A stretch of 64,000 bases of DNA from Candidatus Aminicenantes bacterium (GTDB lineage: Bacteria > Acidobacteriota > Aminicenantia > Aminicenantales > Saccharicenantaceae), in contig CAVTOI010000002.1 of NCBI GenBank assembly GCA_963736255.1, positions 428,411 to 492,410 of the forward strand. The letters run 5' to 3'. Within the stretch, counting starts at the first letter, position 1, and every line of letters starts with the position of its first letter. Made by a program: the position numbers and the translations under genes. The notes below the pieces were generated by a model, which saw only the letters and a program-made list of their open reading frames with translations, did not search any database and was not told where the DNA came from. This document shows positions 3,035 to 49,442 of this stretch, piece after piece.

Positions 3035-6000
3035 CTACCGGATCTCCTTCAAACGGATGTTGCGGAACTCGACGATCGAGCCGTGCCCCAGGAACCCGAT
3101 GTGTCCGGACTCCCGCTTGAGGCCCGGATGGTCGTTGCCGTCGATGGTGCCGCCGGCCGAGGCCGCGTCGAGGTCGGCGTCGACGATCGGTCGCGCCGTT
3201 GACGACGACGGTGACATGCCGCCCCCTGACCGTGACCTCCTCGGCATTCCACTCGCCCGGCGGATGCAGGAAGCCGCGGCGCGCCGGGACGACCCCGTAG
3301 ACCGAGCCGTGGTACTGATACGGCCGGAGTCCCCAATAGACGGGTGAGCCGTCCTCGAGGATCTGGATTTCCATGCCGGCATAGGCGGCGTCGCCTTCGA
3401 GAGGGGCGCGGACGCCGAGGCCGTTGTTGGCCGCGGGCGGCAGCTTGAACTCGAAGCGGAGCACGAAATCGGCGTACTCTTTGGCCGTGTAGAGATTGCC
3501 GCTGCCGAGCTCGGGACGGATGACGATCTTGCCGTTCTCGGCCGCGTAGCCCTTGGTGTCGCCCGTCCAGCCCTCGAGGTCGCGCCCGTTGAAGAGGGGA
3601 GTGAATCCTTCATCCGTCTCGGCCTGGGTCACGTGCGGGGCACGGCCGTGTCGCGAGGGATCTCGCGGAGGAAGATGTTCCGGAAGTAAAGGACGTTGCC
3701 GTGGGCCTGGAGCTCGATCTGCCCCGTCGGGTAGATCGGCTTGTCCCGTTCCCAGTAATTCTCGAGGACGACATTGTCGACGACGAGCTTGTCGTTGAGA
3801 TAGACGCTGACCCGCTCGCCGATCATGATGACGCGGAAGGCGTTCCACTCGCCGACGGGGCGGTCGGCCTTCTCCGAGGGGACGCTTTTCCCTTTTTGGT
3901 TGTTGTAGAGGCCGCCCGAGCCGACAGGGTTGGCGTCGGGGTCCCAGATCTGGACCTGGGGCGAGCCCCGCAGATAGAGGCCGCTGTCGCCGCCCTTTTC
4001 GATCCTCCAATCGACGAGGAGCTCGAAATCGCCGTAGTCGGCGGCGGTGCAGAGGCTCTCCCCCTTGCCGTCGAAGACGAGGACGCCGTCGATGACCTTC
4101 CAGTGGGCCCGCATCCTGTCGTCGGCCGCGGCCTGCGCCGTGGCCAGCTCCTGGGGCGTCATCTTGGCCCGGGCCGGCGGATCGGCGACAAGGCCTTTCC
4201 AGCCGTCGAAGCCGCGCCCGTCGAAGAGCGGCGCGAACCCGCCCTGCCGCAGGCGGGCCAGGATGAGCTCGTCGATGCGCGCCCGCTCGACCGGGTCGGC
4301 CGTCCGGGCCTCGACCCGTCTGAGGACGGAGTACGCTTCGTGGCCTGACAAGCCAGCGCTCCTGGCGGCGCCTGTTCTGAGGCCAGATCGAGGAGGCCGG
4401 CCGCGGCCGCCTCGCCGAGCGCGGGATTGTCCAGATACCTGGCGAGAAGGCGCAGCGTCTCGGGCTCGCGGATGGCCGCGGCGCCGGTGACGACGAGCTT
4501 CTTGTCGGCATCGTCGAAGGGCTGGGCGAGAAGGCTCCTCGAAAAGGGCCAGCTTCTTCTGCCCGGTCATGGCGGCCCGCCCGACGAGGCGGACATAGCC
4601 CTCGACGGCCAGGAGCCGGTAGCGCTTGCTCGCGGTCGTGGTCGCGATCCGCAGGAGCTCGCCGGCCGCCTGAAAGTCGGGCCATTGGGAGAGCGCGTAG
4701 ATCGCGGCGGTCTGGACCTGGGGATCGGCGCTCGAGGTCTCGCCGATGACAGCCCGATAGGCCGCGTCCCCTCCGACCTTCGGCATGACCCTGAGGATGA
4801 CGGCCTTTCGCGGCGCCGGGGCGCTCTTCAGGATCTCGACCAAAGCGGCGCCGCGGCGCGCCGGGTCGGCGTTCCTTCGGGCCGCGGCGGCTACGGCCTC
4901 CTGCAGCCTGACGATGTCGTCCCCGTCGGTGGCCGTCTCGAGCAGGGCGACAAGGCGGGGGAGGTCGGCTTCGCCGGCCGATCTTGGCCAGGGCGCCGAG
5001 CGCCGCGGCCCGGGTTGCCGGCTCCGCATCCGAGGCCAAGGCGAAAACGCGCTCGATCTCGCCCCGGGCGCCCTTTTCGCCCAGGATGTCGATGAGGACG
5101 GCCTTGCCCGGGTGGGGCGTCGAGTCGAGGAGCCGGACGGCTTCGGGGACGACCTCCTCGGCCGTCGAAGCCGAGAAGGGCCGTTTTCAGGGCCTGCGGC
5201 CTCGTCTTCGCCGGCGGCGCCGACGAGCCCGAAGAGTCGGGCGCAACGGCCTCGCCGCCGAGGCGGACCGTGGCCGGGATGGCGGCCAGGCGGACGGTCT
5301 TGTCCGGGCTCTTCGAAGGCACTCCCGAACGAAGGGCAGAGCAGCTTTGTCGCCGCGCCGGCCGAGCATCTCGACGATCGCGGCCCGCACGTCGGGGGCC
5401 GAAGCCTCGGCCTTGTCGATCCAAAGCGACGGTCGCGGCACTCGCCACCGAGCGCTGGTCGCCAAGCTCCAGGGCGGCGCCCCGGACGGCACGGACCGGG
5501 CTGTCGACGGCGCGGAGAAGGTCGGGCAACGCCTTGTCCTTGAGGACAGAGACGATGAGGGCCAGCGCTTCCGACGCGACCGGGCTCTCTTCGGGACCGC
5601 CGTGCGTCTCGAGGACCGACCGGGCCATCGCCAGGCCCTCGCTCGTCTTGCCGGACTCCGCGAGCCGGCGGGCATAGAGGAGGAAGAGGGCGGGGGCTTC
5701 GGCCCTTTCGGCTCGAGACGAGGCCACGCGGACCTTCGAGAGAACGGCGCCCGCGGCCGGGTCGCCGATGTTGGCCAGGGCGAAGCGGGCGGCGCGGCGG
5801 AGCCCCTCATCGGCGGTTTCGGCCAGGACCATGAGCTTCTTCAAGGCTTCGCGGCTGCGCATCTCGCCCAGATGCGTCGATGATCGGGATACGGGCGTTC
5901 CCGGCGGCCGTGTCGAGGGCCGCGAGGAGCGTCTTGGAGGCCTCGGGCCCGCCGATCGTCGGAGAGCCGCGACGGCCGGCCCGGCCAGGGCCTCGTCCGC

Positions 6001-43099: not shown

Positions 43100-44350
43100 A
43101 TGAACGCGCACGATCTCGGCCGGACGCTGTCGCTGTGGGCGGTCGTCCCCTTCGTGGGGCTCCTGCTGTCCATCGCGCTCCTGCCTCTCCGTGCGCCCCA
43201 TTTCTGGGAAAACCACAAGAACAAGGGCCTGGTCGCGTTCCTCTGGTCGCTGCCTGTCGCCGTCTACTTCCTCTTCCAGATGCCCCACGAGCTCGTCCTG
43301 TCGATGAAGGATTACGCCTCGTTCCTCCTGCTGCTCACGGCCCTGTTCATCATCTCGGGCGGCATCGTCCTCAAGGGAGACCTCAAGGCGACGCCGGAGG
43401 TCAACACCCTGATGCTGTTCATCGGAGCCGTGCTGGCCAACTTCATCGGGACGACCGGGGCCAGCATGCTCCTCATCCGCCCGCTGCTGCAGACGAACTC
43501 CGAGCGCAAGCATACGCTCCATGTCCCCATCTTCTTCATCTTCCTCGTCTCCAATATCGGCGGCTGTCTGACGCCCCTCGGCGACCCGCCCCTCTTCATG
43601 GGCCTCATCAAGGGCGTGCCCTTCTTCTGGACGCTGCGCTTGTTCCCGATCTGGGCGGTCATGACCGGCGGCGTCCTCCTGATCTTCTATCTCTACGACA
43701 GCTTCCAATACCGCAAGGAGGCGTGCCGCGACATCATCCGCGACCGGCAGCGCGTCGTGCCCCTCCACATGACCGGAACGATCAACTTCCTTTGGCTCGC
43801 CGGTGTCGTCGCCGCGATCTTCCTGCCCTTCCCCAGCCGCGAGGGCGTGCTGATTCTTATGGCCATCGTGTCCCTTCTCACGACTAAACGGGTGTGCCGC
43901 ATCGACAACAAGTTCACTTACGGCCCGATCATCGAGGTGGCGATCCTCTTCGCGGGGATCTTCGTGACCATGATCCCGGCGCTCCTCATCCTCAACGCCC
44001 GCGGCGCGGAGCTCGGCATCACCCGGCCGTGGCAGTTCTTCTGGGCCACGGGCTCGCTGTCGTCCTTCCTCGACAATACGCCGACCTACCTGGCCTTCTT
44101 CTCCATGGCCCAGGGTCTCGGCCTCAACGGCGACATGATGGGCATCCCGAACCTGATGCTCAAGGCGATCAGCGTCGGGGCCGTCTTCATGGGCGCGAAC
44201 TCCTACATCGGCAACGGGCCGAACTTTATGGTCAAGGCCATCGCCGAGGAATACAAGCTGAAGATGCCGTCGTTCTTCGGCTATATGGCCTACTCCGCGG
44301 CCGTCCTCATCCCGCTCTTTGTCGTCGTTACCCTTATCTTCTTCAGGTAA
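43100..44350 (+). CDS. Ion transporter of the ArsB/NhaD (citrate transporter-like) permease superfamily. It is a putative Na+/H+ antiporter.
   Basis: About 12 TM helices and a hydrophobic N-terminus. The motif ...GDPPLFMG... is present. Confidence 0.65.
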   Translation: MNAHDLGRTLSLWAVVPFVGLLLSIALLPLRAPHFWENHKNKGLVAFLWSLPVAVYFLFQMPHELVLSMKDYASFLLLLTALFIISGGIVLKGDLKATPEVNTLMLFIGAVLANFIGTTGASMLLIRPLLQTNSERKHTLHVPIFFIFLVSNIGGCLTPLGDPPLFMGLIKGVPFFWTLRLFPIWAVMTGGVLLIFYLYDSFQYRKEACRDIIRDRQRVVPLHMTGTINFLWLAGVVAAIFLPFPSREGVLILMAIVSLLTTKRVCRIDNKFTYGPIIEVAILFAGIFVTMIPALLILNARGAELGITRPWQFFWATGSLSSFLDNTPTYLAFFSMAQGLGLNGDMMGIPNLMLKAISVGAVFMGANSYIGNGPNFMVKAIAEEYKLKMPSFFGYMAYSAAVLIPLFVVVTLIFFR

Positions 44351-44534
44351 ACATCACCCGGGTCCCCGTCATGAACTCTCCGTTCGCCCTTCCTCTGTAC
44401 GCGTGCCCGGCCGGCGGCGTTTCGCCGAAGCGACGGCGCGACGGGCTCCAAGCTGGAGCGCCGAAACCGACACTACTAATGGTGGACGTCGAGAGCCTTT
44501 CTACAAATAAAAGTGGCCGGGACCGAGAAAATAC

Positions 44535-44563
44535 TTGACAATTGGTTAGAATGCTCTATAAAT
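44535..44563 (+). promoter_or_regulatory. Near-consensus sigma70 promoter, preceded by an A-rich UP-like region.
   Basis: TTGACA-17 nt-ATAAAT (with a TATAAA alternative) lies about 70 nt upstream of the operon ATG. An AAGAGGAA SD sits at the first gene. Confidence 0.6.
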
Positions 44564-44633
44564 GAAAACAGAAAATCTTCATGATGGCAGCATTAGGAAC
44601 GATGAACGTTAGGATTGAAAGAGGAACCGAGAG

Positions 44634-45743
44634 ATGAAAGTTGCATTGCTCTATAGCTCGAAAGCGGGCATGGAGGCGACGCTCGTCGCCCGCCCCGCCG
44701 AGCACAAGGACGAGGAGGACGAACCTCCACTTCCCAGTGACATGCTCGCCGAGTGCGATTCGGACGAGACGATCGCAGCGGTCGGGCATGCTCTCCAGGA
44801 GCGGCACCAGGTCGTTTTCATCGAATCCGACGACAAGGCCTACGGCCGGCTGAAGCGTCAGCGGCCGCACCTCGTCTTCAACATCGCCGAGCGCGTCGTC
44901 GGCCCCAACCGCGAATCGCACATCCCGACGGTCTGCGAGATGCTGGACGTTCCCTACACAGGCTCCGACCCGCTGACCCTCGGCATCTGCCTCGACAAGT
45001 CGAGGGCCAAGGAGATCCTGACCTACCACCGGGTCCCCAATCCCGCTTTCTGGATCATCGAGTCGGCGGCGGCCATCCCGGCCGGCGTCCGGCTGCCGGC
45101 CATCATCAAGCCCCTCTACGAGGGCTCGAGCAAGGGCATCAAGAACAATTCCCTCGTCGGGAGCCTCGACGAGCTCTACGAGCGCGTCGAGGAGGTCATC
45201 GCGACCTACAGGCAGCCGGTCATCGTCGAGCGGTTCCTCGGCGGCCGCGAATTCACCGTCGGCGTCCTGGGGAACGCCCCGAACTATGAGATCCTTCCCA
45301 TCGTCGAGATCGACCACGGGCAGCTCCCCGCGGGGGCGGCGCCCATCTATTCCTATGAGGCGAAGTGGCTCTGGGACACCCCTGAGAAGCCTCTCGACAT
45401 CTTCAAGTGCCCGGCGCCCATCCCCGGCGTCCTCCGGGCCAAGATCGAGAACGTCGTCGACCGTACCTGCAGCGTCCTGCGCATCAGGGATTGGGCCCGG
45501 ATCGACGTCCGGCTCGACGACAAGGGCGAGCCCAACATCCTCGAGGTCAATCCTCTGCCGGGCATCCTGCCCCGCCCCGAGGACAATTCCTGTCTGCCCA
45601 AGGCGGCCCGGACCGCAGGGTATTCCTATTCGGACCTGATCCATAGGGTCGTGGACGAGGCCTCCAAGCGCTGCGGCCTCCGACAAACGCGCATCCGGCC
45701 TGCGTCGAGCGATCGGCCGGCGGTCCTTGCGGATCGTGCATGA
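44634..45743 (+). CDS. D-Ala-D-Ala-ligase-family ATP-grasp enzyme, ligase 1.
   Basis: A Ddl-like N-terminal domain (YTGSDPLTLGICLDKSRAKEIL). The ATP-grasp region reads PAIIKPLYEGSSKGI...ILEVNPLPGI. Confidence 0.75.
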   Translation: MKVALLYSSKAGMEATLVARPAEHKDEEDEPPLPSDMLAECDSDETIAAVGHALQERHQVVFIESDDKAYGRLKRQRPHLVFNIAERVVGPNRESHIPTVCEMLDVPYTGSDPLTLGICLDKSRAKEILTYHRVPNPAFWIIESAAAIPAGVRLPAIIKPLYEGSSKGIKNNSLVGSLDELYERVEEVIATYRQPVIVERFLGGREFTVGVLGNAPNYEILPIVEIDHGQLPAGAAPIYSYEAKWLWDTPEKPLDIFKCPAPIPGVLRAKIENVVDRTCSVLRIRDWARIDVRLDDKGEPNILEVNPLPGILPRPEDNSCLPKAARTAGYSYSDLIHRVVDEASKRCGLRQTRIRPASSDRPAVLADRA

Positions 45744-46774
45744 ACCCTGCGTCGAACATCGCCATCGTCTTCAACGCCTACGAACCGAGATCGACGGCGG
45801 CGGGGGAGCGTCTGTCCGAGGAGTCCGTGGCCGACATGGCCCAGCAGGCGCACGACGCCGTCCGAATGCTCGGCGTCGGCGCGACGCTCATCCCGCTCCA
45901 GAAGAGCCTGCTCAATTTCCTGGGCCGGGTCCGGGAGATCAACCCCGACGCCCTGATCAACCTCTGCGAGGGGTACTACGGGCGGCCGCAATGGGAATCC
46001 AACGTCGCCGGGATCTTCGAGCTCCTGGGCCTGTCGTTCACGGGGAATGCGGCCAAGACCCTGGCCTTCTGCCAGGACAAGTTCAAGGCCAAGGCCGTGC
46101 TTCGGGCGGCGGGGCTGCCGACCGCGCCGGCGCAGCTCATGCTCACCGGGGACGAGCCCCTCGAGCTGCGGTTCCCCGTCATCGTCAAACCCAACTCCGA
46201 GGACGCCAGCCTGGGTATCTACCCCGATTCCGTCGTCAAGGACGAGGAGGCGCTGCGTCGGCAGGTCCGGCGCTGCCTCGACAGCTACAGGCAGCCCGTC
46301 CTCGTCGAGGCGTTCATCGACGGCCGCGAATTCAACGTCTCGGTCATGGAGAACGGGGCGCCCAAGGCCCTGCCGGTCTCCGAGATCGACTTCTCGGCCA
46401 TGCCCAAGGAGATGCCGAAGATCCTCGGCTACGAGGCCAAGTGGTTCGAGGACAATCCGCTCTATCAGAAGACGCCGCCGGTCTGCCCGGCGGCGATCGA
46501 CGACGACCTCCGGGACAAGCTCCAGGGACTGGCCGTGGCGGCCTTCCGGACCATGGGCTGCCGGGATTACGCCCGGGTGGATTTCCGGATGGACGCCAAG
46601 GGCCGGCCGTTCGTCCTCGAAGTCAATCCGAACCCGGACATCAGCACCAACGCGGGCTATGCCCGGGCCCTCAAGGCGGCCGGGATCGAATACGCGGCGT
46701 TCTGGGGGGTCATGGTCAAGAACGCCGTCGAAAGAAGGGTCGGCAATGATCCGACGGATGGAATCGCGAGATAA
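45740..46774 (+). CDS. D-Ala-D-Ala-ligase-family ATP-grasp enzyme, ligase 2.
   Basis: FTGNAAKTLAFCQDKFKAKAVL...PVIVKPNSEDASLGI...VLEVNPNPDI. It has an ATGA overlap with ligase 1. Confidence 0.75.
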   Translation: MNPASNIAIVFNAYEPRSTAAGERLSEESVADMAQQAHDAVRMLGVGATLIPLQKSLLNFLGRVREINPDALINLCEGYYGRPQWESNVAGIFELLGLSFTGNAAKTLAFCQDKFKAKAVLRAAGLPTAPAQLMLTGDEPLELRFPVIVKPNSEDASLGIYPDSVVKDEEALRRQVRRCLDSYRQPVLVEAFIDGREFNVSVMENGAPKALPVSEIDFSAMPKEMPKILGYEAKWFEDNPLYQKTPPVCPAAIDDDLRDKLQGLAVAAFRTMGCRDYARVDFRMDAKGRPFVLEVNPNPDISTNAGYARALKAAGIEYAAFWGVMVKNAVERRVGNDPTDGIAR

Positions 46775-47219
46775 GGACGCCGTGCTCGGACTCGTCCGGG
46801 CCACGGGGTTCTTCACGCCGGTCGAGGTCGACGTCGCCGAGGAGCTCGTCGACATCTTCCTCGGAAAGCCGGACCAGAGGGACTACGACGTCGTCGTCGT
46901 CGAGGGTGACGGCGGGGCGCCCGCGGGCTACATGACCTGGGGCCCGACGCCGCTGGCCGAGGGCGCCTACGACCTCTACTGGATGGCCGTGGCGCCGTCC
47001 GAACAGGGCCGGGGGCGCGGCAAGGAGCTCGTCCGCTGGCTCGAGGGCGAGGTCGGCCGGCGCCAGGGGCGGGTCATCATTATCGAGACCTCGTCGCAGC
47101 CGAAGTATCACGGCACGCGGCAGTTCTATATCGATCTTGGGTACAAAGAAGTCGCCCGGGTCCCGGATTTCTACCGGGCCGGCGACGATCGCGTCATCTA
47201 CGCGAAGTACTTTCGTTAG
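46765..47219 (+). CDS. GNAT family N-acetyltransferase.
   Basis: A 151-aa GNAT fold (...LYWMAVAPSEQGRGRGKELVRWL...). Confidence 0.7.
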
Positions 47220-47230
47220 GAGTTCAGGAG

Positions 47231-48343
47231 ATGGACGACTGGCAACGTTTGATGAAGGGCGTTCTCAGGAAACCCGAAGAGATCGCCCGGAAATTCGGGC
47301 TTGACGTCGAGGAGGTCCGCCGGATCGCCAAGGTGTTCAAGATCCAGATCACGCCGTACTATGCGGGCTTGATCAAGGAGCGGGGCGACGCCATGTGGCG
47401 CCAGATGGTCCCCGACCCGGCCGAGCTGAAGGAAGACACAGGGGTGGCAGACCCGCTCGAAGAAGACGCGGATTCGCCCGTTCCGAGCATCGTCCACCGC
47501 TACCCCGACCGCTGCCTGTTCCTCGTGTCGCACAGCTGCGCGTCGTTCTGCCGGTTCTGCACCCGGAAGAGGAAGGTCGGCGACCCGTCGAAGATCCACC
47601 CGCGCTATATCGAGGACGGCATCGAATACATCCGGAGGCACACGGAGCTCCGGGACGTCATCATTTCCGGCGGCGATCCGCTGATGCTCAGCGACCGCCG
47701 GCTTGAGGCTATCATCAAGGCCGTCAGGGGCATTCCCCACATCGAGATCATCCGTATCGGCACGCGCGTGCCGTGCGTCCTGCCGCAGAGGGTCACGGAA
47801 AAGCTCGTGGCCATGCTCAAGAAGTACCACCCGCTCTACGTCAACGTGCATTTCAACCACCCGGACGAGATCACGCCGGAGTCGTCGCGGGCGCTGAACC
47901 TGCTCGCCGACGCGGGGATCCCGCTCGGGAACCAGACCGTGCTCCTCAAGGGGGTCAACGACGACCCGCTGGTCATGCGGCGGCTTATGCAGAAGCTCCT
48001 GGCCGTGCGGGTCCGGCCCTATTACATCTACCAGGCGGACTATGTCTCGGGGACCGAGCACCTCAGGACGACGGTCGAGAAGGGCCTCGAGGTCATGGAG
48101 AGCCTGCGCGGCTGGACGTCCGGGCTGGCGGTGCCCTACTACTGCATCGACGCGCCCGGAGGCGGCGGCAAGATCCCGGTCCTGCCGAAGTACCTGCAGT
48201 CGATCACCGACGAGCAGGTCGTGCTGCGCAATTACGCCGGCGAGCTGTTCATCTACCCGCAGGTCAAGCCCAAGCCGAAGCGCCGGCCCCGGCCCGCGAC
48301 CGCCCCCTGCTACAGCTTCGACGGCGCCCCCCCGATGCCTTAA
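47231..48343 (+). CDS. kamA: Lysine 2,3-aminomutase (KamA family radical SAM).
   Basis: The CASFCRFCTRK cluster motif is present, together with the KamA family signatures (YPDRCLFLVSHSCA..., ISGGDPLM) and a C-terminal Cys. There is an AGGAG SD. The TAA stop lies inside the TIR of the downstream element. Confidence 0.8.
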   Translation: MDDWQRLMKGVLRKPEEIARKFGLDVEEVRRIAKVFKIQITPYYAGLIKERGDAMWRQMVPDPAELKEDTGVADPLEEDADSPVPSIVHRYPDRCLFLVSHSCASFCRFCTRKRKVGDPSKIHPRYIEDGIEYIRRHTELRDVIISGGDPLMLSDRRLEAIIKAVRGIPHIEIIRIGTRVPCVLPQRVTEKLVAMLKKYHPLYVNVHFNHPDEITPESSRALNLLADAGIPLGNQTVLLKGVNDDPLVMRRLMQKLLAVRVRPYYIYQADYVSGTEHLRTTVEKGLEVMESLRGWTSGLAVPYYCIDAPGGGGKIPVLPKYLQSITDEQVVLRNYAGELFIYPQVKPKPKRRPRPATAPCYSFDGAPPMP

Positions 48344-49442
48344 GAAGGGGTCAAACCTTAATTCTTATAATTTTCTGCCGCCGGAAAAGTCCCCGAATAT
48401 CAACGATTCCATTTCGGCGACAGCACGGCGGAGCGGCTCGCTCGAAACGATATCGCCCCTCATCTTCCGGAAGGCAACTGCAACCGCGATAGGGCCGATG
48501 TTAAAGAATTCCCCAATCTCCTTGAGTTTGTAGTTAGTATTCCTATGCGCAATGAAGATGGTCGCCTTTTTAACGAGCCTGTTTGTTGCTCCTAACCTGA
48601 AGACAGCAACAGAATGGATGGCCGATATTTCAGGTCTCTTTACGAGGCTCGGGATTTCGGACACCTCGCTATCGGCGTGTTCAAGCGCCTGTTTAAGGTG
48701 TAATCTGCGGATCTTCTCGATAAATTCGGCGTTACCCAAGATTCCGATCCGCTCCGCTTTGGCGAACTCGGGAAACGAGGACCAGTCCACGCTGGAATTG
48801 AGATATCGACTGTGCTCTGTCCGCATTGCCATCAAATCGCCTCCGAAGCAGCGGACGATCGTTTCGGTTGTGAGCCATGCTGGGGGGTCGATGAGTCCAA
48901 AATATGCCGCGGCACTTGACCATTTGAATTCTTCCGGGCGCTCGGCGAACCCCTTGCGCACGGGATTCCCATGTATGTACATCGTCAATACCCGGGCATA
49001 GGATTCTGTGTCTAATAGTATGGCCTTGAACCGGCCCTGGAAGAGATGCCCGCATCGATCATGTTTGAGGTTGAGATAGATCGAATACGTCGTGTTTATG
49101 AAGTGCATGATCTGAGAGAGATTGCCGACGGGGCACTCCAAAATGAAATGATAGTGGTTCGGCATCAGACAATAAACGTGGAAGTTGGCCGAAAACCTTT
49201 TGTGGGCATCATGAAGAACCTTCAGGAAATAGCATCGATCGTCATCGGAAAGGAAGATAGGCTGCTTCTGGTTCCCTCGGGAATAGACGTGATAAAAAGC
49301 GCCCGGATACTCGATACGGAGATGCCTGGCCATGATAGAGTCCTCGCCGCCGTATGCCTATCTTTTTAAGAGACGCAGAGCGGGAGGAGTTATTCTCTGA
49401 TGATGCGAAATATTATAAGAATTAAGGTTTGACCCCTTCTTA
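48341..49442. mobile_element. 1.1-kb transposable element. It carries a RAYT/IS200-like Y1 transposase gene flanked by perfect 31-bp terminal inverted repeats (TAAGAAGGGGTCAAACCTTAATTCTTATAAT).
   Basis: IR-L is 48341-48371 and IR-R is 49412-49442, and they are exact reverse complements. The same IR core occurs in the MITE-like repeat at 24903-25043. Confidence 0.75.
48365..49333 (-). CDS. HUH Y1 tyrosine transposase (REP-associated / IS200-like TnpA) with a C-terminal DnaA-type HTH domain.
   Basis: The HxH motif is HVYCLMPNHYHFILE. The catalytic-Tyr region reads SYARVLTMYIHGNPVRKG. The C-terminal HTH (KLKEIGEFFNIGPIAVAVAFRKMR) resembles DnaA domain IV. Confidence 0.75.
   Translation of the reverse strand: MARHLRIEYPGAFYHVYSRGNQKQPIFLSDDDRCYFLKVLHDAHKRFSANFHVYCLMPNHYHFILECPVGNLSQIMHFINTTYSIYLNLKHDRCGHLFQGRFKAILLDTESYARVLTMYIHGNPVRKGFAERPEEFKWSSAAAYFGLIDPPAWLTTETIVRCFGGDLMAMRTEHSRYLNSSVDWSSFPEFAKAERIGILGNAEFIEKIRRLHLKQALEHADSEVSEIPSLVKRPEISAIHSVAVFRLGATNRLVKKATIFIAHRNTNYKLKEIGEFFNIGPIAVAVAFRKMRGDIVSSEPLRRAVAEMESLIFGDFSGGRKL

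Follow-up and report, generated by a model that had tools for sequence, protein, structure and literature searches.

The stretch of DNA analysed here (the window) comprises 64,000 nucleotides (nt) of contig CAVTOI010000002.1 from a Candidatus Aminicenantes bacterium (assembly GCA_963736255.1), and window coordinates are used throughout. Between positions 44634 and 48343 its plus strand carries four tightly packed genes, which encode two ATP-grasp enzymes resembling D-alanine--D-alanine ligase (Ddl), a GNAT-family N-acetyltransferase and a KamA-like aminomutase. The ligases are named AG1 and AG2 in gene order. The genes are preceded by a promoter and a short upstream open reading frame (uORF), and the locus is laid out as follows, with protein lengths in amino acids (aa):

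44535-44562, plus strand: sigma-70-type promoter, with the -35 box TTGACA at 44535-44540, a 16-nt spacer and the -10 box TATAAA at 44557-44562
44581-44637, plus strand: uORF of 18 codons, MMAALGTMNVRIERGTER, whose TGA overlaps the AG1 ATG
44634-45743, plus strand: AG1, Ddl-fold ATP-grasp amide ligase, 369 aa, PF07478 (Dala_Dala_lig_C)
45740-46774, plus strand: AG2, second Ddl-fold ATP-grasp amide ligase, 344 aa, PF07478
46746-47219, plus strand: GNAT, small N-acetyltransferase of the 2R7H type, 157 aa, PF13508 and PF00583
47231-48343, plus strand: KamA-family radical-SAM/pyridoxal phosphate (PLP) aminomutase, predicted L-lysine 2,3-aminomutase, 370 aa, PF04055, PF12544 and TIGR00238

All four open reading frames (ORFs) were verified, and the description of the locus in an earlier note as a four-gene operon of two Ddl-like ATP-grasp ligases, a GNAT and KamA agreed with the Pfam and NCBIfam assignments. 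The ATGA overlap between the ligase genes, which had also been claimed, lies at 45740-45743. The overlap between AG2 and GNAT had been put at 10 nt and needs correction, as it is 29 nt long (46746-46774), or 17 nt if the second ATG (46758) is used; the first ATG was favoured because relatives of the protein also start with MIR. The gap between GNAT and KamA is 11 nt and carries an AGGAG Shine-Dalgarno sequence.

An alignment of AG1 was scanned against one genome per GTDB species, which gave more than 564 relatives, and the best 80 were kept. Most of these 80 were labelled Aminicenantes or Acidobacteriota where the name was informative, and the nearest relatives of AG1 were all annotated as Candidatus Aminicenantes or Acidobacteriota. 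Among the 73 Aminicenantes species genomes whose loci extended far enough, 69 carried AG1, AG2, GNAT and KamA in the same order within 4.3 kb, with identities down to 65% for AG1 and 52% for AG2. A protein identical to the KamA of the window was recorded on one contig of an ENA metagenome assembly.

Outside the Aminicenantes, relatives of the GNAT structure 2R7H led to a permuted cassette, KamA-AG1-AG2-(GNAT::Hist_deacetyl)-GNAT, in Desulfovibrio mangrovi, a Woeseia metagenome-assembled genome (MAG), two further large genomes and a contig of a G20-like Oleidesulfovibrio. The gene in brackets, a fifth member of many non-Aminicenantes cassettes, encodes a protein of about 580 aa in which an N-terminal GNAT is fused to an amidohydrolase of the histone deacetylase (HDAC) family (L085 8629-10386, L087 6268-8004 and L090 6250-7980, for instance). 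Enzymes of the HDAC family hydrolyse N-epsilon-acetyl-lysine-type amides. A Nitrososphaerales archaeon carries the cassette as well, one of its ligase genes being transcribed divergently. When metagenomes were scanned with GNATs from outside the Aminicenantes as anchors, 80 loci were obtained, 32 of them informative (at least 6.5 kb upstream). All four genes were present in 25 of these 32, and 11 of the 25 had GNAT::Hist_deacetyl in addition; three loci held AG2-GNAT only and two GNAT only. The presence of AG1 tracked that of KamA (25/2/0/5, Fisher p = 1e-4), and GNAT and AG2 were neighbours in every cassette. When the 215 ORFs flanking complete cassettes were clustered, no neighbouring family proved recurrent, and in particular none of transporters, precursor peptides or target proteins; one ABC-like cluster occurred in seven loci. 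The co-occurrence of the four genes is far beyond chance. Whether they are co-conserved in other genomes had been named in the earlier note as decisive for its interpretation, and they are, in the Aminicenantes, the metagenome loci, several other phyla and the archaeon. As a separate observation, the AG2-type gene of the Woeseia MAG (L086 5548-6123) is a 191-aa fragment between AG1 and the deacetylase, likely owing to a frameshift, a pseudogene or an assembly error.

We read the operon as one copy of a self-contained cassette, spread over several bacterial phyla and archaea, that would make a small beta-lysine-containing amide without ribosomes or non-ribosomal peptide synthetases. Judged on sequence evidence, we put the chances of this reading at about even.

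Both ligases matched a single Pfam family, the C-terminal ATP-grasp domain of Ddl (PF07478), with E-values of 2.6e-31 for AG1 and 9.8e-33 for AG2. They stayed below the NCBIfam Ddl cut-offs of 243 and 246 bits (NF002378/TIGR01205), AG1 scoring 164 and 131 bits and AG2 150 and 135 bits, and the RimK model gave only 19 bits. The best solved relatives of both proteins were all Ddl or VanA (E about 1e-24), in alignments that begin around DdlB residue 63-72. An AlphaFold (AF2) model of AG1 (pLDDT 73, pTM 0.73) found only Ddl structures among its best matches, over all three domains, with TM scores of 0.65-0.8 and 21-27% identity. The structural matches thus place the ligases in a Ddl-like subfamily and not in a RimK- or L-amino-acid-ligase-like one.

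The ATP-, Mg-binding and catalytic residues K97, K144, E180, E187, R255, D257, E270 and N272 are kept in AG1, AG2 and orthologues from five other lineages, in the numbering of E. coli DdlB, the sequence of which agrees with the structure alignment over residues 63-295. The pocket for D-alanine (D-Ala) has changed. H63 is V in AG1 and Y in AG2 and varies among orthologues, Y216 is W in both and A or E in proteobacterial AG1, S150 is A in AG2 and A or G across the AG2 clade, and S281/L282 reads S-C in AG1, S-D in proteobacterial AG1 and A-G in AG2. As the catalytic residues are intact and the pocket is altered, both proteins are probably active amide ligases on other substrates. They are 36% identical to each other and fall by BLAST into two orthologue groups across phyla, AG1 being the KamA-adjacent and AG2 the GNAT-adjacent ligase. 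In BLAST alignments AG1 shares 45% of its residues with its Nitrososphaerales counterpart and 35% with that of Desulfovibrio, and AG2 is 45% identical to a Spirochaetales copy and 38% to that of Nitrososphaerales. AG2 and GNAT form single polypeptides (AG2::GNAT) in L144, L163 and the database proteins P0496, P0497, P0521 and P0525. Proteins of the AG2 type are annotated in Phycisphaerae/Planctomycetota, Thermodesulfobacteriota, Lysobacterales, Rhizomicrobium and candidate division CSSED10.

These properties bear on a rival explanation of the locus, namely that KamA and GNAT make plain N-epsilon-acetyl-beta-lysine beside two unrelated cell-wall D-Ala-D-Ala ligase paralogues. KamA with a GNAT alone is indeed a known route to that compound, and the public annotations point the same way, the ligases being called 'D-alanine--D-alanine ligase' and 2R7H 'putative D-alanine N-acetyltransferase'. 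However, both ligases fall below every Ddl model cut-off, the D-Ala pocket (H63, Y216, S281/L282) is not kept, the GNAT is not AblB and AG2 is found fused to GNAT. The ligases are also co-inherited with KamA and GNAT in several bacterial phyla and in an archaeon of the Nitrososphaerales, which lack peptidoglycan (murein), and no cell-wall and division (mur/fts) gene cluster surrounds the operon. The explanation has very little probability left, and its peptidoglycan part was rejected on the failed cut-offs, the lost pocket and the missing mur/fts context and is effectively refuted. The earlier note had asked whether either ligase could be a true Ddl or a RimK-type enzyme; the cut-offs, the RimK score, the pocket and the archaeal orthologues speak against both.

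A sister family of the ligases consists of single proteins, about 675-725 aa long, in which two Ddl-like ATP-grasp units stand in tandem. Their genes are each followed by one for a Peptidase_S58 enzyme (DmpA/BapA beta-/D-aminopeptidase family). The arrangement was seen in three independent loci (L082 8001-11432, L084 3181-6368 and L173 676-3811), in which stop and start often overlap. Two-domain ligases account for many of the 150 library representatives of AG1. The fused double ligases are only 30-40% identical to AG1 and AG2 and are not simple AG1-AG2 fusions, and their loci look like a synthetase/hydrolase pair.

The sister family raises the possibility that AG1 and AG2 work iteratively and build oligo- or poly-(beta-lysine), or a mixed cationic isopeptide, as a reserve or polycation similar to cyanophycin or the streptothricin tail, the amines of which would be masked by the GNAT and unmasked by the HDAC-type enzyme. 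The pairing of fused ligases with Peptidase_S58 in three loci is typical of reserve polymers, and the two-domain ligases among the AG1 representatives, the presence of genes for reversible acetylation and the ability of GNATs to detoxify the beta-lysine amine of streptothricin would also suit such a product. Nevertheless, characterised Ddl-type enzymes make dipeptides and not polymers, the fused proteins are distant from AG1 and AG2 and no simple fusions of them, and the KamA cassettes hold no S58 or other peptidase. The window likewise has no peptidase of this kind, and neither HDAC nor Peptidase_S58 homologues were found in it. We regard polymer synthesis as unlikely.

The fourth protein of the operon combines Radical_SAM (PF04055) and LAM_C (PF12544) domains, passed the broad KamA family model TIGR00238, and no narrower one, with 294 bits against a cut-off of 199 and aligned over 343 residues with the Clostridium lysine 2,3-aminomutase 2A5H (E 3.4e-113). 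The radical-SAM cysteines C125/C129/C132, R134, D293, D330 and the PLP lysine K337 are shared by the window protein and five orthologues from other cassettes. D293 and D330 bind the epsilon-ammonium group of lysine and R134 its carboxylate. The two aspartate positions are reportedly Lys and Asn in glutamate 2,3-aminomutase and distinguish the lysine from the glutamate enzymes, and their retention supports the earlier assignment of the protein as a lysine 2,3-aminomutase. C268 and the clostridial C-terminal Zn domain are missing from the window protein, and the EpmB equivalog TIGR03821 reached only 229.9 bits against a cut-off of 369.3. The cassette KamA belongs to a distinct clade of probable lysine 2,3-aminomutases.

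The GNAT scored above the cut-offs of PF13508 and PF00583 and has the acetyl-CoA motif (Q/R-x-x-G-x-G/A) in the form QGRGRG. Its best solved relative is PDB entry 2R7H (E 5e-32), a structural-genomics GNAT from Desulfovibrio desulfuricans/alaskensis G20, whose gene is the last one of the same cassette in the G20-like Oleidesulfovibrio, in the order sigma-54 activator, KamA, AG1, AG2, GNAT. The window protein belongs to the same family as 2R7H and is about 45-48% identical to Desulfovibrio-type GNATs (47.6% to the D. mangrovi copy); as 2R7H has no assigned substrate, it gives the fold and not the function. The best NCBIfam match of the GNAT was RimI, weak at 29 bits, and NCBIfam had no specific model for any of the four proteins or for the GNAT::Hist_deacetyl fusion. 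Apart from these, a PIG-L/LmbE-family de-N-acetylase gene (L163 2848-3705, minus strand) is found close to an AG1 / AG2::GNAT locus in which both KamA and an HDAC gene are missing, and it may be an alternative deacetylase.

A ligase, a GNAT and a deacetylase together also follow the logic of mycothiol synthesis, and the cassette could accordingly be taken to make a secreted or specialised metabolite or a cofactor-like low-molecular-weight thiol, that is, a beta-lysine amide resembling an antibiotic or siderophore, or a conjugate of an N-acetylated amino acid like mycothiol or bacillithiol. The PIG-L/LmbE-type deacetylase near L163, the MFS or DMT transporters that adjoin some cassettes and a TonB receptor near L090 are in line with this. 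On the other hand, genes for transport or resistance do not recur, glycosyltransferases and Cys-specific enzymes are missing, and the near-universal vertical conservation (69/73) resembles core physiology rather than a strain-specific secondary metabolite. Such a product appears quite improbable.

The promoter TTGACA-16-TATAAA agrees with the consensus at 11 of 12 positions. It had been described in the earlier note as TTGACA-17-ATAAAT, a string that is present, although the better register lies one base earlier. A consensus scan for promoters and terminators called no promoter and gave terminator-like matches at chance level; it missed the promoter because the last -10 base is A, where the scanner demands T. 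About 73 of the 79 Aminicenantes loci examined have a box of the form TTGACA-N15-18-TATA(A/T)A ahead of AG1, 39 to 150 nt from the ATG. The match is thus no product of chance, and the box is under selection. As far as sequence conservation can tell, the operon is driven here by a strong, conserved sigma-70 promoter.

An ORF of 9-25 codons that starts 45-64 nt upstream of AG1 was present in 55 of 81 loci. About 40 of these uORFs encode the motif M-[ILV]-T-x-x-G-T-[YF]-x-x-L-[SR], which occurs at this position in L003-L055 and others, and their stop lies at or over the Shine-Dalgarno sequence or ATG of AG1. Third codon positions are more variable than first and second ones (entropy 1.59 vs 1.2), a wobble of the coding type. 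In the window itself the uORF has degenerated, the 94%-identical locus L002 has an unrelated one (MKGFLSNERWS) and Saccharicenans-type loci have none, and no uORF-like peptide was found in five non-Aminicenantes loci (Desulfovibrio, Woeseia, two further genomes and Nitrososphaerales). The leader RNA of 83 nt did not fold more stably than shuffled sequences (z = +1.0), so the conserved leader is not explained by RNA structure, and at a permissive threshold no Rfam family matched in 43900-48900, which argues against a riboswitch. The uORF is probably a lineage-specific regulatory leader peptide or translational-coupling element, rather than a substrate.

As a substrate, the uORF peptide would belong to a scheme of protein or peptide modification, in which the ligases add beta-lysine or some other residue, in the manner of RimK/TTL, EpmA or graspetide enzymes, to a target that could be a ribosomal protein, a translation factor or a small peptide made by ribosomes, the GNAT acetylates the target and, in Aminicenantes, the uORF product serves as the scaffold. 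A short ORF followed by two ATP-grasp genes and a GNAT mirrors the layout of the microviridin clusters MdnA/B/C/D, the uORF motif is conserved with coding-type wobble, the GNAT matches RimI best, if weakly, and the KamA relative EpmB serves the modification of elongation factor P (EF-P). Yet the uORF is missing or unrelated in about one third of the Aminicenantes loci, near-identical operons among them, and the window copy is degenerate. The lack of a comparable ORF in the five non-Aminicenantes loci led us to down-weight the scaffold idea, and many uORF copies have no acidic or Lys residue for cross-linking. Moreover, the ligases are of the Ddl type and not of the RimK or MdnB/C type, no conserved target gene lies nearby, the EpmB score of 230 bits is far from the cut-off of 369 and EpmA is absent. 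We therefore give modification of a protein or peptide only a slim chance.

To return to a cassette for a small beta-lysine amide, the intact lysine-binding residues suggest that the KamA-type enzyme would convert L-lysine to beta-lysine. The 2R7H-type GNAT would transfer acetyl from acetyl-CoA to one amino group of a presumed acceptor, thereby neutralising a charge or blocking a nitrogen. The two non-redundant Ddl-fold ligases would form one amide bond each through an acyl-phosphate, AG2 working with the GNAT and AG1 travelling with KamA. AG1 may be the better candidate for the beta-lysine step because it co-occurs with KamA and its pocket is acidic at 216/282 in proteobacterial copies, which is weak evidence. 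As both ligases are co-conserved, one or two further amide bonds are to be expected in the end product, which would resemble an N-acetylated di- or tripeptide and is most likely an N-acetylated beta-lysine peptide. The pathway is probably self-contained and cytoplasmic, given that no transporter, precursor or target gene recurs and that none of the four proteins matched a defence system in PADLOC. The product would probably stay in the cytoplasm and serve there as a compatible solute, as a protectant against stress or as a reserve rich in nitrogen, and a solute or protectant role is plausible. In lineages with the GNAT::HDAC-type amidohydrolase the acetyl group could be removed again.

Several observations weigh against this reading. 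KamA is absent in about 7 of the 32 metagenome loci, in which AG2-GNAT or GNAT stands alone, and at the related Aminicenantes loci L030, L033, L036 and L037, so that beta-lysine may be optional or made elsewhere in the genome. The window KamA also fell short of the AblA equivalog TIGR03820 (465.9 bits against a cut-off of 525.4; cassette orthologues 461-462 bits) and could act on the lysyl moiety of a larger substrate, and the GNAT had no match at E <= 0.01 to the AblB model TIGR03827 or to the Ngg models. Many carriers are MAGs from soil, peat and freshwater, for which the role of an osmolyte has no obvious fit. Regulation, finally, is lineage-specific, with sigma-70 promoters in Aminicenantes and sigma-54 boxes elsewhere. 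The latter (TGGCA[CT]-N5-TTGCT) were found upstream of KamA in 6 of 36 non-Aminicenantes cassettes against about 0.3 expected (L085, at about 4456-4471, L087, L090, L114, L124 and L166), and sigma-54 activator genes lie directly upstream in both Desulfovibrio-type loci (L085 2857-4293 and L172 2874-4310).

Within the KamA-less subclade of Aminicenantes, the GNAT of L037 (10113-10700 region) directly abuts the next conserved gene. The sister genomes L031 and L032 keep KamA at the locus.

In a bolder form, which we consider possible and rather doubtful, the cassettes would represent an unrecognised class of metabolites, namely acetylated beta-lysine oligopeptides or isopeptides made by two Ddl-type ligases, whose charge would be set by the GNAT as writer and the HDAC-type enzyme as eraser. 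Aminicenantes, sulfate reducers, marine Gammaproteobacteria, Planctomycetota and soil ammonia-oxidising archaea would all share this class, and in Aminicenantes its synthesis would be under the control of the conserved leader peptide. Bolder still would be a variant in which the ligases mark a protein or a ribosomal micro-peptide with beta-lysine.

The neighbours of the operon were also considered. Upstream lies a CitMHS_2 transporter gene (putative citrate or ArsB-NhaD-type, 43100-44350, plus strand), which ends 283 nt before AG1. It forms a separate transcription unit, the 283-nt gap holding the operon promoter, and its synteny with the operon is limited to the closest 27 of the 80 genomes. 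Downstream and convergent, 21 nt from KamA, a gene at 48365-49333 (minus strand) encodes a protein of 322 aa that begins with a Y1_Tnp domain (IS200-like tyrosine transposase). In 17 further loci of Aminicenantes a homologue with 37-56% identity follows KamA at a distance of at most 900 nt, a recurrence unusual for a mobile gene that suggests a domesticated or REP-associated copy.

The enzyme families and their logic are familiar. Their combination is undescribed in the literature searched and surprisingly widespread. In the full-text literature searched no paper that joins an aminomutase with ATP-grasp ligases in this way was found, a prior mention being possible, and the view of the earlier note that the combination is no described pathway stands for the searchable literature. 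If the proposed pathway is true, genes called 'D-alanine--D-alanine ligase' in hundreds of genomes are misnamed, and a widespread beta-amino-acid metabolite has been overlooked in organisms that cycle carbon, sulfur and nitrogen, by which we mean Aminicenantes (sediments, peat), Desulfovibrio-type sulfate reducers, Woeseia and the ammonia oxidisers of the Nitrososphaerales. The orphan structure 2R7H would gain a function, two new amide-bond-forming enzymes that may accept beta-amino acids would be added, and the routes to N-acetylated peptide solutes (AblAB, Ngg and N-acetylaspartylglutamate, NAAG) would be extended to a pair of Ddl-type ligases. Oleidesulfovibrio alaskensis G20 is a genetically tractable carrier, so the question is directly testable.

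Among the known systems, Ddl and VanA (EC 6.3.2.4) share with the cassette ligases the three-domain fold, as seen in the AG1 model, and the ATP/Mg residues. The cassette ligases differ from them in their low identity (21-27%), the replaced pocket, a divergent N-terminal domain and the occurrence of orthologues in archaea. With EpmA/EpmB the cassette has in common a truncated KamA that lacks the clostridial C-terminal domain and the predicted passing of beta-lysine to a ligase. It differs in scoring below the EpmB cut-off, in having neither EpmA (LysRS-like) nor efp nearby and in being found in archaea too. The order of a short ORF, two ATP-grasp genes and a GNAT gene resembles on paper that of the microviridin/graspetide genes MdnA, MdnB, MdnC and MdnD, whereas the cassette ligases come from a different branch of the ATP-grasp enzymes, graspetide pathways include no radical-SAM aminomutase, and the uORF of 11-19 codons is not organised into a leader and a Thr/Ser-Asp/Glu-Lys core and is not conserved beyond part of the Aminicenantes.

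The route to N-epsilon-acetyl-beta-lysine runs through KamA and a GNAT in AblA/AblB of methanogens and in YodP-KamA of Bacillus subtilis. The cassette likewise encodes a KamA-family enzyme beside a GNAT, with intact lysine-binding and PLP/Fe-S residues, and in some of its relatives a deacetylase joins them, comparable to YodQ in the yod operon. Unlike AblB, with its two-part architecture of about 270 aa, the cassette GNAT has 157 aa and does not match the AblB model, and unlike AblA, the cassette KamA lies below the AblA cut-off and is without the C-terminal Zn domain; two ligases are co-conserved in addition.

A GNAT and an ATP-grasp ligase together make N-acetylglutaminylglutamine amide (Ngg) and N-acetylaspartylglutamate (NAT8L with RIMKLA), and NAT8L with RIMKLA/B is also linked to beta-citrylglutamate. 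In comparison with Ngg/AsnO, the cassette ligases are of the Ddl type and not of the RimK or cyanophycin-synthetase type, a second ligase and an aminomutase take part, no amidotransferase gene lies in the locus, which is also free of EpmA and efp genes, and no Ngg or 'trio' model of NCBIfam was matched. What the cassette shares with Ngg/AsnO and with NAT8L and RIMKLA/B is the pairing of a GNAT with an ATP-grasp ligase, and the analogy with Ngg drawn in the earlier note gains support from the AG2::GNAT proteins, in which the two enzymes form one polypeptide as they do in Ngg.

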